NCBI GenBank assembly: GCA_045536065.1
Contig: JAZSMV010000008.1
Span: 1-57,912 of the forward strand
Source: Eubacteriales bacterium
GTDB taxonomy: Bacteria; Bacillota; Clostridia; Oscillospirales; CAG-272
DNA length: 57,912 bases
Direction: 5' to 3'
Made by a program: the position numbers and the translations under genes. Position 1 is the stretch's first letter. Every line of letters begins with the position of its first letter. Shown here one piece after another: positions 41,167 through 57,901 of this stretch. The notes below the pieces were generated by a model, which had not been told where the DNA came from, did no database searches, and saw nothing but the letters and a program-made list of their open reading frames with translations.

Positions 41167-41287
41167 GGTCCTTCGGACAAATTGCTGAAGCAATTTTCTC
41201 CCTATTTCAAATCCCACCGCCTTTATAAAGCAAAAAAGCAGAGCCCCAAGGACTCTACCTTTTTGCTTGGTGCAGGTGACGGGATTT
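41167..41287 (+). repeat. Copy C of the 121-bp unit, running into the intact tRNA-Leu
   Basis: See copy B. Its last 20 nt are the genuine tRNA-Leu 3' end, including CCA. Confidence 0.85.
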
Positions 41288-41351
41288 GAACCCACACGTC
41301 TCTCAACACTGGAACCTGAAACCAGCGCGTCTGCCGTTCCGCCACACCTGC
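41268..41351 (-). tRNA. tRNA-Leu (anticodon CAG), class II with a long variable arm, CCA encoded
   Basis: The minus strand reads GCAGGTG-TG-GCGG-AACGGCAGA-CGCG-CTGGT-TTCAGGT-TCCAG-TGTTGAGAGACGTGT-GGG TTCAAAT CCC GT-CACCTGC-A-CCA. The acceptor stem pairs 7/7. Confidence 0.85.
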
Positions 41352-49864: not shown

Positions 49865-51328
49865 TTACTTTTTGCCGCCGATCTCGGTGGTGGCAATCTT
49901 CTTGATAACCTCAAGGATCTTCTGAAGCTTGCTCTCACCCTGGGGCTCTGCCTTTGCCTCGCCCTCCTTCTTTGCCGCATCGGGCTTTTCAGCCTGAGGC
50001 TTTGCTACGTGGGCAATTGCGGGGAAGTTGTTGAAGCCGTTGTATGCGTCGGTGAAGAAACCGCCGTAAAGCTCAAGATTCTTCTTAACTACCTCGTTCT
50101 CCTCTGCGGTGAAGAGAGGAAGGAAACGAACGCCGTTTTCCTCTTCCTCAAGGTTAACGAGATCGTAGAGGAAGTTGTACTCCTCGGGCATATTAACGTA
50201 AACCGCCTCGGGATAGCCGATAGAGGAAAGTGCGGGGTTGGATGCAATAAACTCGAGAGTCCACTTCATAAACAGACGGAAGTTCTCGAACATATAGCCC
50301 TCACGGTTGGTGGGAGTGGGACGAAGCATAAACTTAGGAAGCTTACGTGCGGTCTTCTTCGCCTTGCGTGCAAGGAAGTCGCTCTCGCTCTCGTCACCGT
50401 TTTCAGCCTCAACCTCGGCGAGCTCACGCTCAAGCTCCTCGTCATCCTCGTCGTCCTCATCCTCGATCTTACGTCTGCCGGGGAACTCAAGCTCGTCATC
50501 ATCCTCAGACTCGGGGGGAGCTTCCTCGATAACGGTGTTATCGTCGTCCTCCTCAAGAGCCATGTGCTTTGCCTTTGCCTTAGCCTTTGCGTTAAGGATA
50601 AGAAGCTCTGCAGGGCTGTGGTCGAAGATAAGGTCCTCGGGCATTACTCTGGTCTTGTAGAGTGTCTTGTAGCCGAAGGGGAGTGTATAGAAGCCAAAGG
50701 TTCTGCCTCTGACGATAAAGATAATTCTTGCATACTCCTCCTTGATGTCGAGGAGAATAAAGGATGCTCCCTTCAGCTTCTGGTTAAGAGCCATAGCCGA
50801 GTTGGATGCAGCCGATGCGGCGTAGGTGATAGCGCCGATTCCGATCTGATGATCTGCGCAGATCTTCTGCAGATTGAAAAGAATATCCTTTCTTACGGCA
50901 GAAATAGCATAAGTAGACATCTGCTTTGTCTGGTTTGCAAGAACACGGTTGAACTTAAGCTCGGAGCTGTTGCCGTAAATGTTGGACAGCGAAGCTGCGA
51001 GAGAGGAGTCAAGCGCCTTCTTGTTAATGGGGGGCAGATTTACCATATCGGTAAGAACTGCCGAGTCGGGCAGAACTACTGTAACCTGCTGCATATCAAG
51101 ATTGGGATGATCCTCACGGAACTGTCCGAGAACCGCTCCAATCTTGTCGTAAAATTCAGGGGAGAAAGGCTTTGCCTTATAGCCGCTCATCAAGTAGTTG
51201 ATAGAGGACTTGTCCGAGCCAGTCATCGAATAGAGTGAGATTATTTCTCTGTCGGTATCAATGCCGATAACCGACTGTATGTTACTTTTTTTCTTAGCCA
51301 CTTTTTTCGTCCTTTCCGTTAGTTCCAA
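49865..51328 (-). CDS. PilM-like (actin-fold) pilus assembly protein with an internal hyper-acidic insertion and a Lys/Glu-rich tail
   Basis: Contains VIGIDTDREIISL plus the later ILLDIKEEYARIIFI pattern, which fits the PilM/FtsA-like fold. Residues ~257-318 are about 60% Asp/Glu. The call rests on position in the operon and motif resemblance only. Confidence 0.5.
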   Translation of the reverse strand: MELTERTKKVAKKKSNIQSVIGIDTDREIISLYSMTGSDKSSINYLMSGYKAKPFSPEFYDKIGAVLGQFREDHPNLDMQQVTVVLPDSAVLTDMVNLPPINKKALDSSLAASLSNIYGNSSELKFNRVLANQTKQMSTYAISAVRKDILFNLQKICADHQIGIGAITYAASAASNSAMALNQKLKGASFILLDIKEEYARIIFIVRGRTFGFYTLPFGYKTLYKTRVMPEDLIFDHSPAELLILNAKAKAKAKHMALEEDDDNTVIEEAPPESEDDDELEFPGRRKIEDEDDEDDEELERELAEVEAENGDESESDFLARKAKKTARKLPKFMLRPTPTNREGYMFENFRLFMKWTLEFIASNPALSSIGYPEAVYVNMPEEYNFLYDLVNLEEEENGVRFLPLFTAEENEVVKKNLELYGGFFTDAYNGFNNFPAIAHVAKPQAEKPDAAKKEGEAKAEPQGESKLQKILEVIKKIATTEIGGKK

Positions 51329-51699
51329 GAGGTGATTTTGCCGTTATTGTTTAACTTAATTGTTAAAACAAGCTCCAAATTGGAAGTATCAGTAAAATCA
51401 TTTCCCTTGTAAATTTCATATTTCATTTCAGCTTCTGAGTATTTCACTGAATAATTATTATCAATTTCAATTATTACATAATTGCCGGTTTTATAGGTGT
51501 TATCCTGTTTTCCCAGCACGTGCTCACCAATATTATTCACCTCGACCATTTCGTTGAAGTCTTCATAGTCATCGACTCTGAGGGAATTTTGCAGACCCGA
51601 GGTTGACAAAAGCATAATCGTAAACGCCATCATAAGGAACATTACACCGATTGCAAGCTCCATTGCTGCGCCCTTGCGTGATTTTATTAATTTTTTCAA
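51319..51699 (-). CDS. Small pilus-associated protein with a pseudopilin-like N-terminus
   Basis: TTG start 7 nt after AAGGAGGG. Begins MKKLIKSRKG|AAMELAIGVMFLMMAFTIMLL, a hydrophobic helix with the Glu shifted to +4. Overlaps the pilM-like start by 10 nt. Confidence 0.45.
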   Translation of the reverse strand: MKKLIKSRKGAAMELAIGVMFLMMAFTIMLLSTSGLQNSLRVDDYEDFNEMVEVNNIGEHVLGKQDNTYKTGNYVIIEIDNNYSVKYSEAEMKYEIYKGNDFTDTSNLELVLTIKLNNNGKITSWN

Positions 51700-51726: not shown

Positions 51727-52128
51727 TTAAGCCTTCCCTGTTGGGGAAGGGGGACCGCCCGAGGCGGTGGATGAGGTTCGTTCTATATTCTTTATTATAT
51801 TAGAACAAACGCCATCAAAATTTGTTTTTATATCGTAATTTGTATACCGCAACACAGTATACCCCTGACTGCGAAGAAAACTATCTCTTTGCTTATCGTA
51901 CAATTTGCTGTCGGGTTCATAATGCTGTGATCCGTCGAGCTCAATAATCAATCTTGCAGACGGTATGCAAAAATCCACGATGTAATTGTCAATTACTTTC
52001 TGACGATTTACAACAACATCAAGTTTCTTAAGAAAATCATACCAAAGATGCTTTTCTTCCTTGGTCATATTTTTGCGCAAGGATTGTGCGTATTCTTTTA
52101 GCTCCGGATTGTTGTTGAATGTGCTCAT
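51727..52128 (-). CDS. DUF559 domain protein (Vsr-like / PD-(D/E)xK endonuclease fold)
   Basis: Contains LRKNMTKEEKHLWYDFL, VDFCIPSARLIIELDGSQH and VLRYTNYDI, the DUF559 pattern. The SD (GAGGTG) lies inside the inner TIR box. The last ~15 codons (SSTASGGPPSPTGKA) are read-through into the left arm. Confidence 0.8.
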   Translation of the reverse strand: MSTFNNNPELKEYAQSLRKNMTKEEKHLWYDFLKKLDVVVNRQKVIDNYIVDFCIPSARLIIELDGSQHYEPDSKLYDKQRDSFLRSQGYTVLRYTNYDIKTNFDGVCSNIIKNIERTSSTASGGPPSPTGKA

Positions 52129-52183
52129 TATCTCACCTCATCCGTCGGCTACGCCGCCACCTTCCCCAACAGGGAAGGCTGAA
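51729..52183 (-). mobile_element. DUF559 cassette 1: nuclease gene bounded by ~48-bp hairpin-containing terminal inverted repeats (family A arms)
   Basis: The left arm (51729..51777) is AAGCCTTCCCTGTTGGGGAAGG-GGGACCGCCCGAGGCGGT-GGATGAGGT. The reverse complement of the right arm (52134..52183) is TTCAGCCTTCCCTGTTGGGGAAGG-TGGCGGCGTAGCCGAC-GGATGAGGTG. The outer 21 nt and inner 9 nt are identical, and the middle hairpin differs. Confidence 0.65.
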
Positions 52184-52184
52184 T

Positions 52185-52793
52185 CTATCTCACCGTGTAG
52201 GTGGTTTTTTCAATAAGGAAATCGTTTGTTCCGTCGTTTGTAGCGGTGATTGTGATGGAATTGTCACCAAAATCAACATCGAGAGTAACTTTTACTCGTC
52301 CATCGGTGATGGTATAGGTGTAAACGGAGGTACCCTCAGCAGGATCAGAGATAGAAAACGGAGGGGTATCACCATTCTTATATTCAAGATTTATACTTTT
52401 CGCAAAGCAATTCTCAAAAGTCGTCTTTTTAGTTTCGTTGTTATTGCCACTGGTATTCACCGCATATCTAAAGCATTCGATGGCGTTTTCGGCAATGTTG
52501 GTGGCTTCGATCATATCGATCGTTTCGCCGTGGGTTTTGCTGTCTACGGCAACAACGCCGATAGATACCGCTGTTACGATTACGATAATCGCAAGCGCCA
52601 TGGCAAGCTCTACAATAGTAAAGCCTCGGCGGGAGCCTTTTTCATCAAGCCTTCCCCTTGAGGGGAAGGTGGCGGACGAAGTCCGACGAATGAGGTGTTT
52701 TTCATTAATAGTGTTTTCCACCTCATCAGTCACCTTTGGTGACAGCTTCCCCTCAAGGGGAAGCCTGAATATATCTTTAAAATTCATTTTCAT
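52185..52793 (-). CDS. Minor (pseudo)pilin with an abnormally long ~55-60-aa leader
   Basis: Prepilin motif RRG|FTIVELAMALAIIVIVTAV (Glu+5). Possible in-frame starts are GTG 52811, ATG 52793 (TGAGGT SD) and ATG 52787. The leader-coding part contains the gene-less inverted-repeat element. Confidence 0.6.
   Translation of the reverse strand: MKMNFKDIFRLPLEGKLSPKVTDEVENTINEKHLIRRTSSATFPSRGRLDEKGSRRGFTIVELAMALAIIVIVTAVSIGVVAVDSKTHGETIDMIEATNIAENAIECFRYAVNTSGNNNETKKTTFENCFAKSINLEYKNGDTPPFSISDPAEGTSVYTYTITDGRVKVTLDVDFGDNSITITATNDGTNDFLIEKTTYTVR
52647..52769. mobile_element. Gene-less (MITE/REPIN-like) doublet of family A arms
   Basis: The left arm (52647..52697) is CAAGCCTTCCCCTTGAGGGGAAGG-TGGCGGACGAAGTCCGAC-GAATGAGGTG. 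A 21-bp core follows (TTTTTCATTAATAGTGTTTTC). The reverse complement of the right arm (52719..52769) is TTCAGGCTTCCCCTTGAGGGGAAGC-TGTCACCAAAGGTGAC-TGATGAGGTG. Confidence 0.65.
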
Positions 52794-52803
52794 ATCAGTT
52801 ACC

Positions 52804-53343
52804 TCATTCACCTGCGTAGGGGTTTACACAGAAGGTGTAGGTGTAATTCGTTTTATCAACAGAGTAGTTAATGGTGCAATAGTAAACTGCATCTAGATCT
52901 TGACGAACAGTATCAATCAATTCTCCATTTGCAAGATCAAGATTGGAATGATATGTTTCGTTGGTAATGGGGCTATAAAATGCAAAAGCAAATGTAATGG
53001 ATTCTATATGTTCCAATTCCATGGTGACTTTACTATCTTCGCCATTATATGCAACAATAAATCCGTTATTAAACATTACAAATTTATCACCAAAGGAAAG
53101 TTTACTTACACTTTCAAGATAGGCATCTGTAAGTCCGGAATTACTCTCAACAAATCCCTCGATGATTGATTCGGCGGCGGTGACGTCCTGCATGGCTTCA
53201 AATCTTTCGTTGCTGATTCCCTGTGCGCCGTGCATCATTGAGCTGAATGATACGACCATCGTTGCCGCAATGACAAGGACTGCGAGAACTATAATAAGCT
53301 CGGCAAGGGTTGCGCCCTTTCTGCTATTATTCTTTTTGTTCAT
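52804..53343 (-). CDS. Minor (pseudo)pilin
   Basis: Starts MNKKNNSRKG|ATLAELIIVLAVLVIAATMVV (Glu+5). ATG 53343 has GGAGG upstream. The track extension to 53535 runs through a REP-like hairpin and is rejected. Confidence 0.7.
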   Translation of the reverse strand: MNKKNNSRKGATLAELIIVLAVLVIAATMVVSFSSMMHGAQGISNERFEAMQDVTAAESIIEGFVESNSGLTDAYLESVSKLSFGDKFVMFNNGFIVAYNGEDSKVTMELEHIESITFAFAFYSPITNETYHSNLDLANGELIDTVRQDLDAVYYCTINYSVDKTNYTYTFCVNPYAGE

Positions 53344-53444
53344 AGGCTGCCTCCTTTTTAAAAAATGGGATTTTTTAAGATCTTTTAGAGCTTTAAAATA
53401 TTTTAATAAAAAATTTTCGCACATGTAAAATAAGGAAAAGGATT

Positions 53445-53468
53445 CGTAGGGGCGAGGGTTGCTCGTCC
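53445..53468 (+). repeat. REP-like hairpin CGTAGGGGCGAG-ggtt-GCTCGTCC, followed by T7
   Basis: Shares CGTAGGGGCGA...TCGTCC with 55377..55400. On the plus strand it looks like an intrinsic terminator facing against the operon. Confidence 0.5.
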
Positions 53469-53633
53469 TTTTTTTAATCATTCTCTTTGTTTTACATTTG
53501 CGTTTTTTGTCGGTTTTGGGCGGCTTTTCTACCAAAAATGTAAATTAATGTGTGCATTATCACACAAAAGGCCCGATTGATGCCTGATTTTTCGGAAAAC
53601 GGGCAGCATCATTTTCGGGTCAATAATTGGCAA

Positions 53634-54333: not shown

Positions 54334-54848
54334 AAGGCTCCCTTGTGTAAAGGGAGCTCCCGCATAGCGGGTGAGGGATTGTCAATCCTCCTTGTTTAAA
54401 TTAATTCTTGATTTTGTTATCTTGTCAATATAACAACAAACACCGTCAAAATTTTTATTCAATTCATAATTCAATATTCTAATCACTTCAATACCAAACT
54501 TCTCAAGATATTCAGTTCTTTCAGCGTCGTACTGCTTTCCTTCCGGTGTATAATGCTCCGATCCGTCAAGCTCTATAACCAGCTTTGCCTCTGAAGAATA
54601 AAAATCAGCAATGTATCTTCCAAGAACCTTTTGCCGTGAAAAGCGAATTGGATATGAACGCAGAAAATCATACCAAAGGTGCTTTTCTTCTTTGGTCATG
54701 TTTTTTCTCAATTCTTTTGCAAAAGGAACCAAATTCTTATTGTGTTTTCTTTCCATACAATCCACCTTTCGATTCGCTGCTTAACACAAGGGAGCCAACA
54801 ATCCCTCAGTCGCCTTTGGCGCCAGCTCCCTTTACACAAGGGAGCCTA
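54334..54848 (-). mobile_element. DUF559 cassette 2: nuclease gene bounded by ~48-bp hairpin-containing terminal inverted repeats (family B arms)
   Basis: The left arm (54334..54381) is AAGGCTCCCTTGTGTAAAGGGAGC-TCCCGCATAGCGGGT-GAGGGATTG. The reverse complement of the right arm (54799..54848) is TAGGCTCCCTTGTGTAAAGGGAGC-TGGCGCCAAAGGCGACT-GAGGGATTG. An extra half-site ACACAAGGGAGCC lies at 54785..54797. Confidence 0.65.
54382..54756 (-). CDS. DUF559 domain protein (Vsr-like endonuclease fold), paralog of 51727..52128
   Basis: Contains the same LRKNMTKEEKHLWYDFL block, then ADFYSSEAKLVIELDGSEH and VIRILNYEL. I prefer ATG 54756 over the GTG at 54765. Confidence 0.8.
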   Translation of the reverse strand: MERKHNKNLVPFAKELRKNMTKEEKHLWYDFLRSYPIRFSRQKVLGRYIADFYSSEAKLVIELDGSEHYTPEGKQYDAERTEYLEKFGIEVIRILNYELNKNFDGVCCYIDKITKSRINLNKED

Positions 54849-55349: not shown

Positions 55350-55376
55350 AGTTTTACCTCGGTGTGAAATAAAAAT

Positions 55377-55400
55377 CGTAGGGGCGACCATTGGTCGTCC
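55377..55400 (+). repeat. REP-like hairpin CGTAGGGGCGACC-att-GGTCGTCC
   Basis: Second copy of the CGTAGGGGCGA...TCGTCC hairpin, located between the ackA terminator and the greA start. Confidence 0.5.
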
Positions 55401-55404
55401 GTAT

Positions 55405-55431
55405 TCAAAAGGGCTGTCAAGGTGACAGCCC
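55405..55431 (-). terminator. Terminator after ackA
   Basis: The minus strand reads GGGCTGTCACCTTGACAGCCC followed by TTTTG. Confidence 0.55.
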
Positions 55432-57619: not shown

Positions 57620-57695
57620 TGGAGCGGATTACGGGGCTCGAACCCGCCACCTCCACCTTGGCAAGGTGGCGCTCTACCAAATGAGCTAAATCCGC
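57620..57695 (-). tRNA. tRNA-Gly (anticodon GCC), CCA encoded
   Basis: The minus strand reads GCGGATT-TA-GCTC-ATTTGGTA-GAGC-G-CCACC-TTGCCAA-GGTGG-AGGTG-GCGGG-TTCGAGC-CCCGT-AATCCGC-T-CCA. Confidence 0.9.
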
Positions 57696-57710
57696 AGGTA
57701 TAAATTAAAA

Positions 57711-57787
57711 TGGCGACTCGGATGGGGCTCGAACCCACGACCTCTAGCGTGACAGGCTAGCGCTCTAACCAACTGAGCTACCAAGCC
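57711..57787 (-). tRNA. tRNA-Asp (anticodon GTC), CCA encoded
   Basis: The minus strand reads GGCTTGG-TA-GCTC-AGTTGGTTA-GAGC-G-CTAGC-CTGTCAC-GCTAG-AGGTC-GTGGG-TTCGAGC-CCCAT-CCGAGTC-G-CCA. Confidence 0.9.
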
Positions 57788-57825
57788 GAGTAGTTTGAGG
57801 CTCGGAGTCTTGCGACTCCAAGCCT

Positions 57826-57901
57826 TGGTGGAAAGTACAGGGCTCGAACCTGTGACCCTCTGCTTGTAAGGCAGATGCTCTCCCAACTGAGCTAACCTTC
57901 C
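57826..57901 (-). tRNA. tRNA-Val (anticodon TAC), CCA encoded
   Basis: The minus strand reads GGAAGGT-TA-GCTC-AGTTGGGA-GAGC-A-TCTGC-CTTACAA-GCAGA-GGGTC-ACAGG-TTCGAGC-CCTGT-ACTTTCC-A-CCA. Confidence 0.9.

Follow-up and report, generated by a model that had tools for sequence, protein, structure and literature searches.

The BoxC/PIT/TMECO repeats have been familiar from E. coli since the 1990s; in vitro they fold into stable triplexes, and the loci that they occupy are unstable (PMC4666352). No associated protein or mobility gene has ever been found for TMECO; Holder et al. detected no in vivo triplex footprint in duplex E. coli DNA and report that purine-motif triplexes cannot form in RNA, and earlier work cited by these authors found PIT elements to be without promoter or terminator activity (PMC4666352). 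A second point of reference is the homing endonuclease I-Bth0305I, which resides in a group I intron of phage recA and cuts the intron-less allele, and which is related to genes standing free between split inteins (PMC3239194, PMC2677866). Here we describe, in a 57,912-nt stretch of Clostridial DNA (the window), a gene for a DUF559 nuclease that is boxed in by inverted arms resembling BoxC/PIT/TMECO repeats. DUF559 denotes a very large protein family, the structure of which has been solved (3HRL) and for which we know of no assigned function; among nucleases of similar fold, Vsr is a small monomeric nickase that reads DNA distortion, namely a T:G mismatch. We consider it reasonably probable that the unit in the window is a compact selfish cassette, composed of a DUF559 nuclease and inverted triplex-forming arms and lodged in a former spacer of about 8 nt, and that it belongs to a widespread pairing of such genes with BoxC/PIT/TMECO-type repeats.

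Element 1 is a 455-bp unit in which inverted arms of 46-48 nt box DUF559 gene 1, a Vsr-like PD-(D/E)xK nuclease ORF of 133 aa (51727..52128, minus strand) with a PF04480 match. Its neighbours belong to a pilus operon: upstream lies a minor pilin cistron (52185..52640, minus strand, start approximate) with the N-terminal methylation motif G|FTIVEL, and downstream a cistron of 126 aa (51319..51699, minus strand) with orthologs in the related loci L001, L002 and L081. The placement between pilus cistrons, claimed in an earlier note made from the sequence, is confirmed: the right arm ends 4 nt past the minor pilin stop codon (52185), and the left arm stops 30 nt short of the TTG start (51699) of the next gene. 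The left, or downstream, arm (51730..51777, plus strand) reads AG, a Y segment CCTTCCCT (51732-51739), a loop, an R segment GGGGAAGG (51743-51750), GGG, a connector hairpin (51754-51768), an R' segment GGATGAGG (51769-51776) and T. The right, or upstream, arm (52135..52180, minus strand) repeats this order as AG, Y, loop, R GGGGAAGG, TG, connector GGCGGC gta GCCGAC, R' GGATGAGG and TG. Shared parts had been noticed before and are borne out by exact counts: the window contains two copies, and no more, of the outer 21-nt palindrome AGCCTTCCCTGTTGGGGAAGG, one at 51730-51750 (+) and one at 52160-52180 (-), where none would be expected by chance, and the identical inner box GGATGAGGT is found solely at 51769-51777 (+) and 52135-52143 (-). 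The middle hairpin, as had also been seen, differs in sequence between the arms and keeps its pairing (ACCGCC-cga-GGCGGT versus GGC-gta-GCC plus flanking pairs). Folded as single-stranded DNA, each arm yields two hairpins with z-scores of -3.4 to -5.2 (ViennaRNA; hairpins only, R' left unpaired).

The gene and its arms overlap in their reading. The conserved DUF559 domain of gene 1 extends to about 51781 and the arm supplies the last 15 codons, so the readout through the left arm is as the earlier note had it. More generally, the recurrent peptide tails and N-terminal extensions 'PSPxGEG', 'LPLEGK...TDEV' and 'HLIRR...' in Clostridial gene calls are translated arms, the ORF 52185..52811 being one example. 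At the other end, the GAGGTG of the right-arm R' lies 5 nt before the ATG of DUF559 gene 1 and can act as a ribosome-binding site. The inner box had been assigned this role; the GAGGTG is indeed present in the upstream arm of element 1, but element 2 uses a different ribosome-binding site, and ribosome binding by the box is a secondary use that concerns the upstream arm alone.

The protein itself is a clear family member. Gene 1 matches Pfam DUF559 (PF04480) with E=5.2e-32 over profile positions 3-108 of 109, and gene 2, described below, with E=5.6e-29; the only Pfam matches are DUF559, MTES_1575 and DUF2726, with no HUH/Y1 transposase among them. With the YcjD-like model PRK09767 (NCBIfam) the gene 1 protein scores 80 bits against an equivalog cut-off of 218 bits, and is thus a member of the family rather than a YcjD ortholog. 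An alignment spanning five phyla has D52, E63, D65, G66, H69, D78 and R81 as invariant residues, and 3HRL is matched in sequence with E=8e-13. The predicted structure (pLDDT 85.8) finds its best Foldseek match in the homing endonuclease I-Bth0305I (3R3P; E=6e-5; TM 0.64/0.75, with 0.75 on the target), followed by 3HRL and Vsr (1CW0, 1VSR) and, weakly, by TnsA of Tn7. Profile match, invariant acidic and His residues and these structural matches together uphold the Vsr-like PD-(D/E)xK fold proposed earlier. A role in anti-phage defence was considered and rejected, PADLOC yielding merely weak partial matches to nuclease domains. A search for carriage by phages gave three hits only, all distant, one of them a fecal contig in which a doublet precedes the gene.

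Two further units are present in the window. DUF559 gene 2, a nuclease ORF of 127 aa (54382..54765, minus strand), lies 2.6 kb from gene 1 and encodes a protein 53% identical to that of gene 1. Its arms follow the design of element 1 with a different sequence, referred to as family F2. The downstream arm (54335..54382, plus strand) is composed of Y GCTCCCTT, R AAGGGAGC, connector CCCGC ata GCGGG and R' TGAGGGAT; the upstream arm occupies 54797-54847 (minus strand), and an additional partial copy of the outer hairpin (54780-54796, minus strand) is situated between that arm and gene 2. The third unit carries no gene. It is a doublet (52648..52766) of two facing arms of the element 1 kind, a type-a arm at 52648-52697 (+) and a type-b arm at 52719-52766 (-), separated by a 21-nt spacer and located between both DUF559 genes, which bears out the earlier report of gene-less doublets nearby. 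Situated immediately upstream of where the minor pilin truly begins, it artificially lengthens the mechanical ORF 52185..52811. These six arms are the only ones in the whole window; none lies outside the three units.

What, then, is the design of an arm? The earlier note had described three parts, two hairpins and a Shine-Dalgarno box. The parts are as described, but the box is better read as the third strand of a triplex motif: it mirrors the purine strand in the outer hairpin. Read from its sequence, each arm is a putative intrastrand purine-motif triplex motif in the order Y, loop, R, connector hairpin, R', in which R' is predicted to lie antiparallel on R via G*G.C, A*A.T, T*A.T and T*C.G triplets. 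When R' is defined by structure alone, as the 8 nt directly after the connector hairpin, at least 7 of 8 triplets are compatible in 176 of 251 arms (70%), and in no more than 1% at registers shifted by 1-3 nt. At this register the downstream arm of gene 1 has 7 of 8 compatible triplets and that of gene 2 has 8 of 8, including T*C.G; the window arms score 7-8 of 8, except for the left arm of the doublet (R' GAATGAGG), which reaches 6 of 8, less than the scan requires. Across families R and R' covary, as in the R/R' pairs GGAGAAGG/GGATGAGG, AAGGGAGG/GGAGGGAT, AAGGGAGC/TGAGGGAT, GGGGAGGG/GGGTGAGG and AAGGGGGC/TGGGGGAT. Of the closing triplets, 108 are C.G*G and 33 are G.C*T, and recombinants are absent (141 of 141 arms fit the switch); the lone apparent exception is a parsing artefact. 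This covariation, including the three-way switch from C.G*G to G.C*T, supports the predicted triplex design of the arms. Their outer boundary is sharp, with A-G before Y and A/T-rich flanks.

At which level would such a structure form? Reading every arm in its own direction, we counted 23 G.T against 7 A.C in the variable part of the connector hairpin, with the same bias in upstream and downstream arms; this fits folding of each arm at the DNA level on its own strand rather than in a single transcript. Type-a arms also have a conserved T.G at the base of the connector hairpin. We rejected an RNA-level function, since both arms carry G.T wobbles in their own direction and purine-motif triplexes are reported not to form in RNA, and a coding function, since the connector hairpin changes length in steps that are not multiples of three. 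A hammerhead ribozyme, suggested by the motif CTGATGAG, was dismissed likewise: no GAAA follows a stem II and Rfam offers no match. With Rfam covariance models, only tRNAs reach the gathering score, and no match with an E of up to 10 touches the arms.

Conceivably, the arms could be ordinary expression signals of the nuclease gene, such as a terminator, an mRNA stabiliser, an operator or a ribosome-binding site, and be unrelated to mobility. The GAGGTG 5 nt before the ATG would suit this reading, as would a scan for intrinsic terminators, in which only the two downstream arms score, their outer hairpins resembling weak terminators in the sense direction and being followed by poor tails, CTTAATTTGA and CTTACTCTTA; neither the upstream arms nor the doublet has a tail. 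Against it, arms also exist as gene-less doublets, their own-strand wobble bias would leave one arm mispaired in any single transcript, and R' covaries with R as a third strand and not as a ribosome-binding site. Element 2 has a different ribosome-binding site, the elements are polymorphic in presence and absence, and the triplex and promoter/terminator results on RNA and PIT (PMC4666352) point the same way. We thus regard expression signalling as a highly improbable account of the arms.

Beyond the window, gene and arms keep company. Our Clostridia sample comprised 80 related loci with 70 evaluable DUF559 genes, 69 of which have cognate arms within about 330 nt, as does gene 2 here. By arrangement, 41 genes are boxed and 15 lie beside a doublet; another 13 are accompanied by single arms, and one gene is without arms. 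The inverted-repeat score between DUF559 flanks has a median of 42.5, as compared with 17 in shifted controls (99th percentile 24), and 200 of the 250 arm hits in the Clostridia set fall within 200 nt of a DUF559 gene. Some arms are located far from any DUF559 gene. Scanning metagenomes with the 21-nt palindrome gave 11 matches, 10 of which are unrelated hairpins in other organisms; the lone true arm, at locus L100, is in a gene-less doublet. Proteins with F2 arms stand further apart from the others (54% identity, as against 58-60%), and a permutation test of co-phylogeny between protein and arm family was not significant (p=0.19); a possible co-divergence of DUF559 protein and arm family is weakly supported.

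A similar pairing was found in other phyla. We scanned 13 loci, from E. coli, Neisseria, Sinorhizobium, Azospirillum, Photobacterium, two Deinococcus, Synechocystis, Sphingomonas, Picosynechococcus, Methylobacterium, Novosphingobium and Thermoactinomyces, and counted 29 triplex motifs within 250 nt of the DUF559 genes where dinucleotide shuffles predict 0.2. Depending on the scan, 10 or 11 of the 13 loci have a motif, and two (Picosynechococcus and Thermoactinomyces) have none; the Novosphingobium motif is missed by the stricter scan and is detected only when a longer loop 1 is allowed. The Novosphingobium arms have the polarity and the connector base (GGTGGCA...TGACGGAGG) of the Clostridial arms. 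Polarity varies by lineage, R' pointing toward the gene in Clostridia and Novosphingobium and Y pointing toward it in Deinococcus. In E. coli, TMECO no. 9 of Holder et al. is 167 nt from ycjD, the sole DUF559 gene of this species, an adjacency to one of 23 TMECOs that we estimate to have a chance of about 0.004. It is against these counts that a coincidental association must be weighed, in which arms and gene are independent and merely share A/T-rich intergenic spots, or the gene was trapped by chance between abundant repeats. The A/T-rich flanks and the arms remote from any DUF559 gene would be expected under such a scenario, which nevertheless strikes us as barely tenable: no arm of the window lies outside the three units, arms are near 69 of 70 Clostridial genes, the excess in other phyla is more than 100-fold over shuffles, and the only DUF559 gene of E. 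coli adjoins a TMECO at the chance just given.

Related pilus operons differ in the units that they carry. Where the window carries element 1, the operon of L002 has an 8-nt spacer, as anticipated from the view that the element was inserted into a short intercistronic spacer, and three sites of this one operon are variously filled, empty or marked by a solo arm. At a second site, where the window has no element, L001 has an extra one and L081 a solo degenerate arm; the doublet site is also occupied by a doublet at the equivalent place in L001 and is without one in L002. Two copies lie within 3 kb in the window and three within 6.4 kb in L001. The observations named in the earlier note as speaking for ordinary repeats, namely a lack of arms at other DUF559 genes, arms confined to one locus and a lack of polymorphism, were thus none of them encountered. 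Gene conversion between copies has taken place; two L001 copies are identical over about 390 nt of the ORF and differ in their arms and 3' ends. Within genomes, arms are 84-100% identical and genes 72-78% identical in nucleotides, so that the paralogs are old and recent whole-cassette transposition is not seen.

Alternatively, DUF559 might be a true transposase that excises and reinserts the arm-bounded unit, by cut-and-paste or by an IS200/IS605-type single-strand route. The terminal inverted arms with their sharp outer boundary would be in keeping with this, the gene-less doublets resemble non-autonomous derivatives, and TnsA of Tn7, a weak fold match of our model, is a PD-(D/E)xK nuclease active in transposition. 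No consistent target-site duplication was seen, however, at six aligned ends of filled, empty and solo-arm sites, although the exact ends and the empty-site junction are not definable because the empty sites are too diverged (78-80% identical); looking up the neighbouring 126-aa protein for closer empty sites returned no record. Furthermore, near-identical copies in different contexts within one genome were not found, the 455-bp unit has no second gene for strand transfer, its end hairpins are on opposite strands, unlike those of IS200/IS605, and the characterised proteins closest to its nuclease are a homing endonuclease and a repair nickase. Transposition proper is, in our estimate, improbable.

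The pairing of nuclease and repeats is also in keeping with the distribution of ycjD in E. coli, where it is found in 3378 of 5426 complete genomes. It is carried by phylogroups A, B1 and C, and in two or more independent lineages it is located where the eef operon would otherwise lie (PMC12817139). TMECOs number 19-30 per genome in phylogroups A, B1 and C versus 1-2 in B2 (Holder supplement, PMC4666352), a correlation between ycjD and TMECOs that follows phylogroups and is therefore not a set of independent events. We can also envision a domesticated partnership of the REPIN-RAYT kind, in which a host-maintained DUF559 protein processes or propagates triplex repeats (for example by clearing fork blocks), descends mainly vertically and yields the pilus cassette as a by-product. 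The single ycjD at one fixed E. coli locus and the TMECO counts of ycjD-positive phylogroups compared with B2 fit well here, as do the Clostridial paralogs, which are old while their arms are homogenised, and the 15 of 70 genes that lie beside a doublet and not between arms. The clustering of copies in the window and in L001, and the three sites of one operon that are filled, empty or scarred among relatives, fit poorly, and ycjD is itself polymorphic in presence and absence (PMC12817139). On balance we deem domestication unlikely as the primary explanation, and return to the selfish cassette.

How might such a cassette be copied? On its own, a hydrolytic PD-(D/E)xK nuclease as small as this (about 115 aa) is incapable of strand transfer. 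We infer that the nuclease is active, that it recognises the arms and that the cassette is copied by a route of the following kind. In single-stranded or negatively supercoiled DNA, each arm would fold on its own strand; the nuclease would then recognise the folded or duplex arm and nick or cut at or beside it, and the break would be repaired by recombination with another copy, the arms serving as homology. Such repair could copy the gene into gene-less doublets, homogenise arms within a genome and generate new arm copies. More broadly, and with slightly less than even confidence, we suggest that DUF559 nucleases may be the missing protein partner of BoxC/PIT/TM triplex repeats bacteria-wide, a mobile or semi-domesticated class in which the nuclease would recognise the three-stranded fold at the element ends, as opposed to a sequence or a plain hairpin, and YcjD of E. 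coli would maintain TMECOs. Two orphans, the DUF559 family and the BoxC/PIT/TMECO repeats, may thus explain each other. If the nuclease does act on the arms, this would be the first case in bacteria of a repeat and an enzyme partnered through a three-stranded DNA fold, the triplet covariation would constitute natural evidence of selection on intramolecular triplexes, and ycjD with the 23 TMECOs of E. coli K-12 would offer a tractable test system.

How does the unit relate to the systems described so far? The earlier note knew of no description of this element type. This holds in part, given that the arm class is known as the orphan BoxC/PIT/TMECO repeats and a DUF559 partnership was not found described: in the literature on DUF559/COG2852/YcjD/PF04480, REPIN/RAYT in Clostridia, MITEs of Oscillospiraceae, Vsr-like homing endonucleases and triplex repeats, no report joins the protein to the repeats. 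With Vsr, the protein shares the fold and the metal-binding Asp/His arrangement, and the conserved T.G of type-a connector hairpins resembles the T:G mismatch that Vsr reads; unlike the case of Vsr, no cytosine methyltransferase gene adjoins the window genes, which belong to PF04480 and not to PF03852, and association with repeats is not a Vsr feature. I-Bth0305I, the best structural match, has a catalytic core of the same family and exemplifies a selfish nuclease gene spread by break repair; in sequence it barely resembles the window protein (E=0.11), and the window gene has neither intron nor intein, standing free between pilus cistrons. None of the Vsr-like homing endonucleases is reported to have terminal inverted structure-forming arms or gene-less derivatives such as those seen here. 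As to insertion sequences and MITEs, no DDE, HUH, Ser or Tyr transposase gene is present within or beside the unit.

The parallel with REPIN-RAYT, drawn in the earlier note, applies to the architecture and fails for the enzyme class. Both systems have structured repeats arranged as inverted doublets and a presumed cognate enzyme gene flanked by inverted repeats, and in both the repeat families are genome-specific and homogenised within a genome. Unlike the HUH/Y1 transposase of RAYTs, the enzyme here is a Vsr-like PD-(D/E)xK hydrolytic nuclease, and the repeat is a predicted triplex motif instead of a simple hairpin with a GTAG-type head. The Clostridial DUF559 gene is multi-copy and polymorphic, whereas RAYTs are, according to a part of the literature on them, typically single-copy and vertically inherited.

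The closest likeness is to BoxC/PIT/TMECO of E. coli and other Proteobacteria. There, too, the order is Y, loop, R, loop, R', with R' mirroring R; the triplex is of the G-rich purine type, often with one mismatched triplet; and the repeats are intergenic, present in dozens of copies and unstable between strains. Inverted pairs of BoxC/PIT/TMECO always join two subtypes, as the window doublet joins type a and type b, and R' of the E. coli TMECO, GGGTGAGGG, differs little from that of the Clostridial arms, which is GGATGAGG or, in a part of them, GGGTGAGG. The differences concern the loops and stems. Loop 2, of 3 nt in TMECO, is here a hairpin of 14-40 nt with the conserved base TGGCA/TGTCA...TGAC, too long for the ITxF search, which allows loops of 1-6 nt, and the stems are 8 nt long, CCTTCCCC or GCTCCCTT, unlike CCCTCNCCC of TMECO. 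Since the arms do not follow the TMECO consensus CCCTCNCCC N3-6 GGGNGAGGG N3 GGGNGAGGG, they appear, by sequence comparison, to be a structural analogue or variant of TMECO and not a TMECO copy. Unlike the described TMECOs, they have a DUF559 nuclease gene between or beside them, as does, likewise at its side, one TMECO of E. coli.

The minus-strand gene at 51727..52128 matches Pfam DUF559 (E=5e-32), as expected for the 133-aa ORF that an earlier note, working from the sequence alone, had placed between inverted arms. Most of its anatomy is borne out. The outer 21-nt palindrome (AGCCTTCCCTGTTGGGGAAGG) is identical in both arms, at 51730-51750 on the plus strand and 52160-52180 on the minus strand; these are its only two copies in the window, where none is expected by chance. 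The identical inner box (GGATGAGGT) is found at two gene-proximal positions only, and the second hairpin, unlike in sequence between the arms, is placed between palindrome and box. When folded as single-stranded DNA, each arm forms two hairpins and leaves the box unpaired (z-scores -3.4 to -5.2). The unit does occupy an intercistronic spacer, starting 4 nt past the minor-pilin stop codon and ending 30 nt ahead of the start of the next cistron, and the ORF does read out through the left arm, which supplies its final 15 codons. Of the proposed three-part arm design, the layout holds; the inner box, which had been taken to supply the SD, is the mirror image (R') of the purine strand (R) of the outer hairpin, whose other side we denote Y.

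Each arm can thus be read as a triplex motif composed of Y, a loop, R, the connector hairpin and R'. We scored as compatible the antiparallel purine-motif triplets G*G.C, A*A.T, T*A.T and T*C.G, the last of which is reportedly, from the work of Beal and Dervan in 1992 and of Dittrich et al. in 1994, the accepted natural triplet for a C.G inversion. R' GGATGAGG gives 8/8 compatible triplets with R GGAGAAGG (mirror GGAAGAGG) and 7/8 with R GGGGAAGG (mirror GGAAGGGG); in a second element of the window, R AAGGGAGC (mirror CGAGGGAA) and R' TGAGGGAT reach 8/8. With R' set by structure alone, as the 8 nt after the connector hairpin, 176/251 arms have at least 7/8 compatible triplets at the structural register, and a register shift of 1-3 nt leaves at most 1% that do. 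Covariation of R with R' extends over many variants, such as GGGGAGGC with TGGTGAGG, GGGGAGGG with GGGTGAGG, AAGGGGGC with TGGGGGAT, GAGGGAGC with TGAGGGAG and AGGGAAGG with GGATGAGT. The closing triplet switches as a unit in all three places: 108 distinct arms carry C.G*G, 33 carry G.C*T and none carries a mixture (one apparent exception is a parsing artefact). The same switch is found in the second arm family.

On which strand, and in which nucleic acid, might this structure form? The base of the connector hairpin is conserved (TGTCA or TGGCA ... TGAC, or GGACC ... GGT), and its apex varies in sequence and length and keeps its pairing, with 634 Watson-Crick pairs, 23 G.T and 7 A.C. The excess of G.T holds in each arm's own reading direction, for upstream and downstream arms alike, which implies that each arm folds on its own strand. 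Given that purine-motif triplexes have been stated not to form in RNA (Holder et al., PMC4666352), this points to a structure at the DNA level rather than in the transcript. The alternative that the arms are expression signals is poorly supported; the sequence comparisons show that each arm is under selection for folding its own strand into a three-stranded form.

The window holds three units of the gene/arm type, not one. Element 2 contains a second DUF559 gene (54382..54765, minus strand; protein 53% identical to the first) and is boxed by arms at 54335-54382 and 54797-54847 that share the element-1 layout and differ from it in sequence (AGGCTCCCTTGTGTAAAGGGAGC, followed by a hairpin and TGAGGGATTGT). 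These arms represent a separate sequence family with the same triplex layout; a partial extra copy of the outer hairpin lies at 54780-54796, between arm and gene, and the element (54335-54847) is located upstream of a likely pilin promoter (TTGACA-17-TATACT, 54251-54223). The third unit is a gene-less doublet at 52648-52766, comprising two facing arms 21 nt apart ahead of the minor pilin. Neither an arm-built profile nor an independent structural scan found further arms in the 57.9 kb. At 52640-52811 the mechanical minor-pilin ORF (208 aa) runs upstream through the doublet, giving the peptides 'PLEGKLSPKVTDEV' and 'HLIRRTSSATFPSRGRL'; the true start is probably just ahead of RRGFTIVEL, and peptides of this kind in Clostridial gene calls are translated arms. 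Unrelated to the arms is a short terminator-like repeat (TCGTAGGGGCGA...TCGTCC, a hairpin then a T-run) at 53444-53473 and 55376-55405, which is also present at the orthologous place in the related Clostridial locus L001 (1120-1150). A 487-aa pilus-operon protein (49865-51328) carries a long acidic low-complexity stretch (EEDDDNTVIEEAPPESEDDDELEF...DEDDEDDEELERELAEVEAENGDESESD) and has no Pfam match except a spurious hit. Three tRNA genes stand in a row at the window end (57623-57901), and a fourth at 41271-41351.

The pairing of gene and arms extends well beyond this window. Scanning one genome per species yielded 80 loci, all in Clostridia MAGs (Oscillospirales, 'Ruminococcus', Acutalibacteraceae) and, for the most part, from the guts of ruminants and other animals. 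When the upstream flank of DUF559 genes was locally aligned with the reverse complement of the downstream flank, the inverted-repeat score had a median of 42.5; shifted control positions scored 17 at the median and 24 at the 99th percentile. All Clostridia arms share the three-part layout, and 200/250 arm hits in these loci have a DUF559 gene no more than 200 nt away. Among the 70 genes with an evaluable flank, 41 are boxed and 15 stand beside a doublet; single arms are detectable at 13, and one has none. At loci without flanking arms, a complete doublet directly adjoins the gene. Coincidence is poorly supported as an account of this association, and these comparisons show the linkage to be near-universal. 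Many of the DUF559 hits fall at the end of a contig or close to it, or on a contig that is very short (e.g. L005, L009, L024, L044, L059, L060, L074), as expected if arms or cassettes break short-read assemblies.

Orthologous pilus operons agree with the proposed insertion into a short spacer. In L002 (~78% nucleotide identity), only 8 nt separate the minor pilin from the next gene, with neither element nor doublet at the site of element 1; its greA/major-pilin interval, occupied in the window by element 2, contains an element-1-type cassette. L001 (94.6% identity across the conserved part) carries the element at the same place as the window and an extra second copy between the major and second pilins, a position filled in the window by ~30 nt of spacer and in L081 by only a degenerate solo arm. 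Homologs of 89% identity occupy the window's site in L081 and L082 and the greA site in L083-L085. The two L001 copies are identical over ~390 nt of ORF and differ in arms and 3' ends, a signature of gene conversion. Within one genome, DUF559 paralogs are 72-78% and arms 84-100% identical at the nucleotide level, implying that arms are homogenised faster than genes diverge. The outer boundary of the arm is sharp (A in 71% and G in 94% just before Y, with A/T-rich flanks outside), and no target-site duplication could be defined from aligned element ends. The alignments show filled, empty and scarred sites, conversion between copies and arm homogenisation within genomes; the element is an insertion, and the pilus operon a hot spot for it.

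How might a DUF559 protein promote such copying? Clostridia, E. coli, Neisseria, Deinococcus, Synechocystis and Sinorhizobium all share D52, E63, D65, G66, H69, D78 and R81 as invariant residues. Among solved structures, the closest in sequence is that of the N. gonorrhoeae DUF559 protein NGO0050 (3HRL, E=8e-13), and a structure model (pLDDT 85.8) finds its best match in the I-Bth0305I homing endonuclease catalytic domain, followed by 3HRL and, after it, Vsr. For a hydrolytic nuclease of ~115 aa acting alone, a homing-type role is plausible and that of a transposase implausible, and we therefore prefer break-induced copying over cut-and-paste. We envision that the protein is an active nuclease recognising the arm, either folded or as duplex, that its cut would be repaired by recombination with another copy, and that this repair might copy the gene into doublets and spread or homogenise arms.

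Other phyla provide related arrangements. Searching plasmid and secondary-replicon records by tblastn found DUF559 genes in many taxa, of which twelve loci were fetched and joined by the E. coli locus. Y-R-R' motifs within 250 nt of DUF559 genes numbered 29 against 0.2 expected from dinucleotide-preserving shuffles, with 10/13 loci positive; 17 of 20 sites farther away belong to tandem arrays in Neisseria and Photobacterium that start beside the gene. These arrays begin 50-180 nt downstream of it and comprise three units of ~281 nt in N. gonorrhoeae (L087, 2006-2706) and about ten of ~145 nt, with motifs on both strands, in Photobacterium (L090, 1885-3325). Novosphingobium, missed by a stricter scan because its loop 1 is 11 nt, has its gene flanked on either side by arms with Clostridial polarity; their R' mirrors R exactly over 11 nt, and their connector base is GGTGGCA...TGACGGAGG, as in Clostridial arms. 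Sinorhizobium arms also have a hairpin in loop 2, two Deinococcus loci hold the gene between arms of opposite polarity to the Clostridial ones, and the DUF559 gene of a phage-like fecal contig is preceded, 30 nt upstream, by a doublet. Plasmids L091 and L094, from two Deinococcus species, carry gene and arms between hpaB and hpaE, inside the hpa cluster for 4-hydroxyphenylacetate catabolism. ORF tails of the PSPxGEG type recur in several phyla because the ORFs run into the Y-loop-R hairpin.

The arms follow the layout of the BoxC/PIT/TMECO repeats of E. coli, 5'-CCCTCNCCC N3-6 GGGNGAGGG N3 GGGNGAGGG (PMC4666352). K-12 has 23 TMECO copies, including five inverted pairs that always combine two subtypes; the triplex is stable in vitro and leaves no footprint in duplex DNA in vivo, the loci show raised between-strain variability, and a transposase or integrase nearby was explicitly never found (PMC4666352). 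The published search limited loops to 1-6 nt (PMC4666352) and was thus blind to arms with a hairpin as second loop. The only DUF559 gene of K-12, ycjD, has a type-A TMECO ~170 nt downstream on the same strand, listed without comment as no. 9, between fabI and ycjD and 167 nt from the latter (PMC4666352 supplement); we estimate the chance of such a neighbour at ~0.004. The ycjD ORF ends inside a degenerate Y-R pair (...RSPSP*), and its annotated GTG start is covered by a perfect 17-bp inverted repeat, TCACCTCATTCTGACAA-11 nt-TTGTCAGAATGAGGTGA (L086, NC_000913.3, 4258-4302), containing the Clostridial box variant GAATGAGGTG beside TGTCA. About 45 nt of the 3' end (GGAGACGGTGCTGGAGAATATTC...CTGAACCG) is duplicated ~115 nt downstream, flanking a degenerate Y-R hairpin (L086, 3800-3990), which looks like an old insertion or rearrangement. 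The gene is carried by 3378/5426 complete E. coli genomes. A 2026 study places it in phylogroups A, B1 and C and in two sequence types of D and E, at the position taken by the eef operon in B2 and others (PMC12817139). TMECO counts are 19-30 in A/B1/C strains, 1-2 in B2, 11 in O157:H7 and 6-15 in D and F (PMC4666352 supplement), a correlation with ycjD that tracks phylogroups and is suggestive only. The main rival to break-induced copying, a domesticated REPIN-RAYT-like relationship between DUF559 and repeats, is a better fit to E. coli than to the window. Our literature search, thin on subscription journals, found no papers tying DUF559, YcjD or COG2852 to repeats or giving BoxC/PIT/TM elements a protein. 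Separately, the protein family, the repeat class and the broad concept of repeat-enzyme partnerships are all known already; as far as can be told, novelty lies in the DUF559-repeat partnership, in the hairpin-interrupted triplex arm and in the triplet covariation, through which two long-standing unknowns become open to direct experiment in E. coli K-12.
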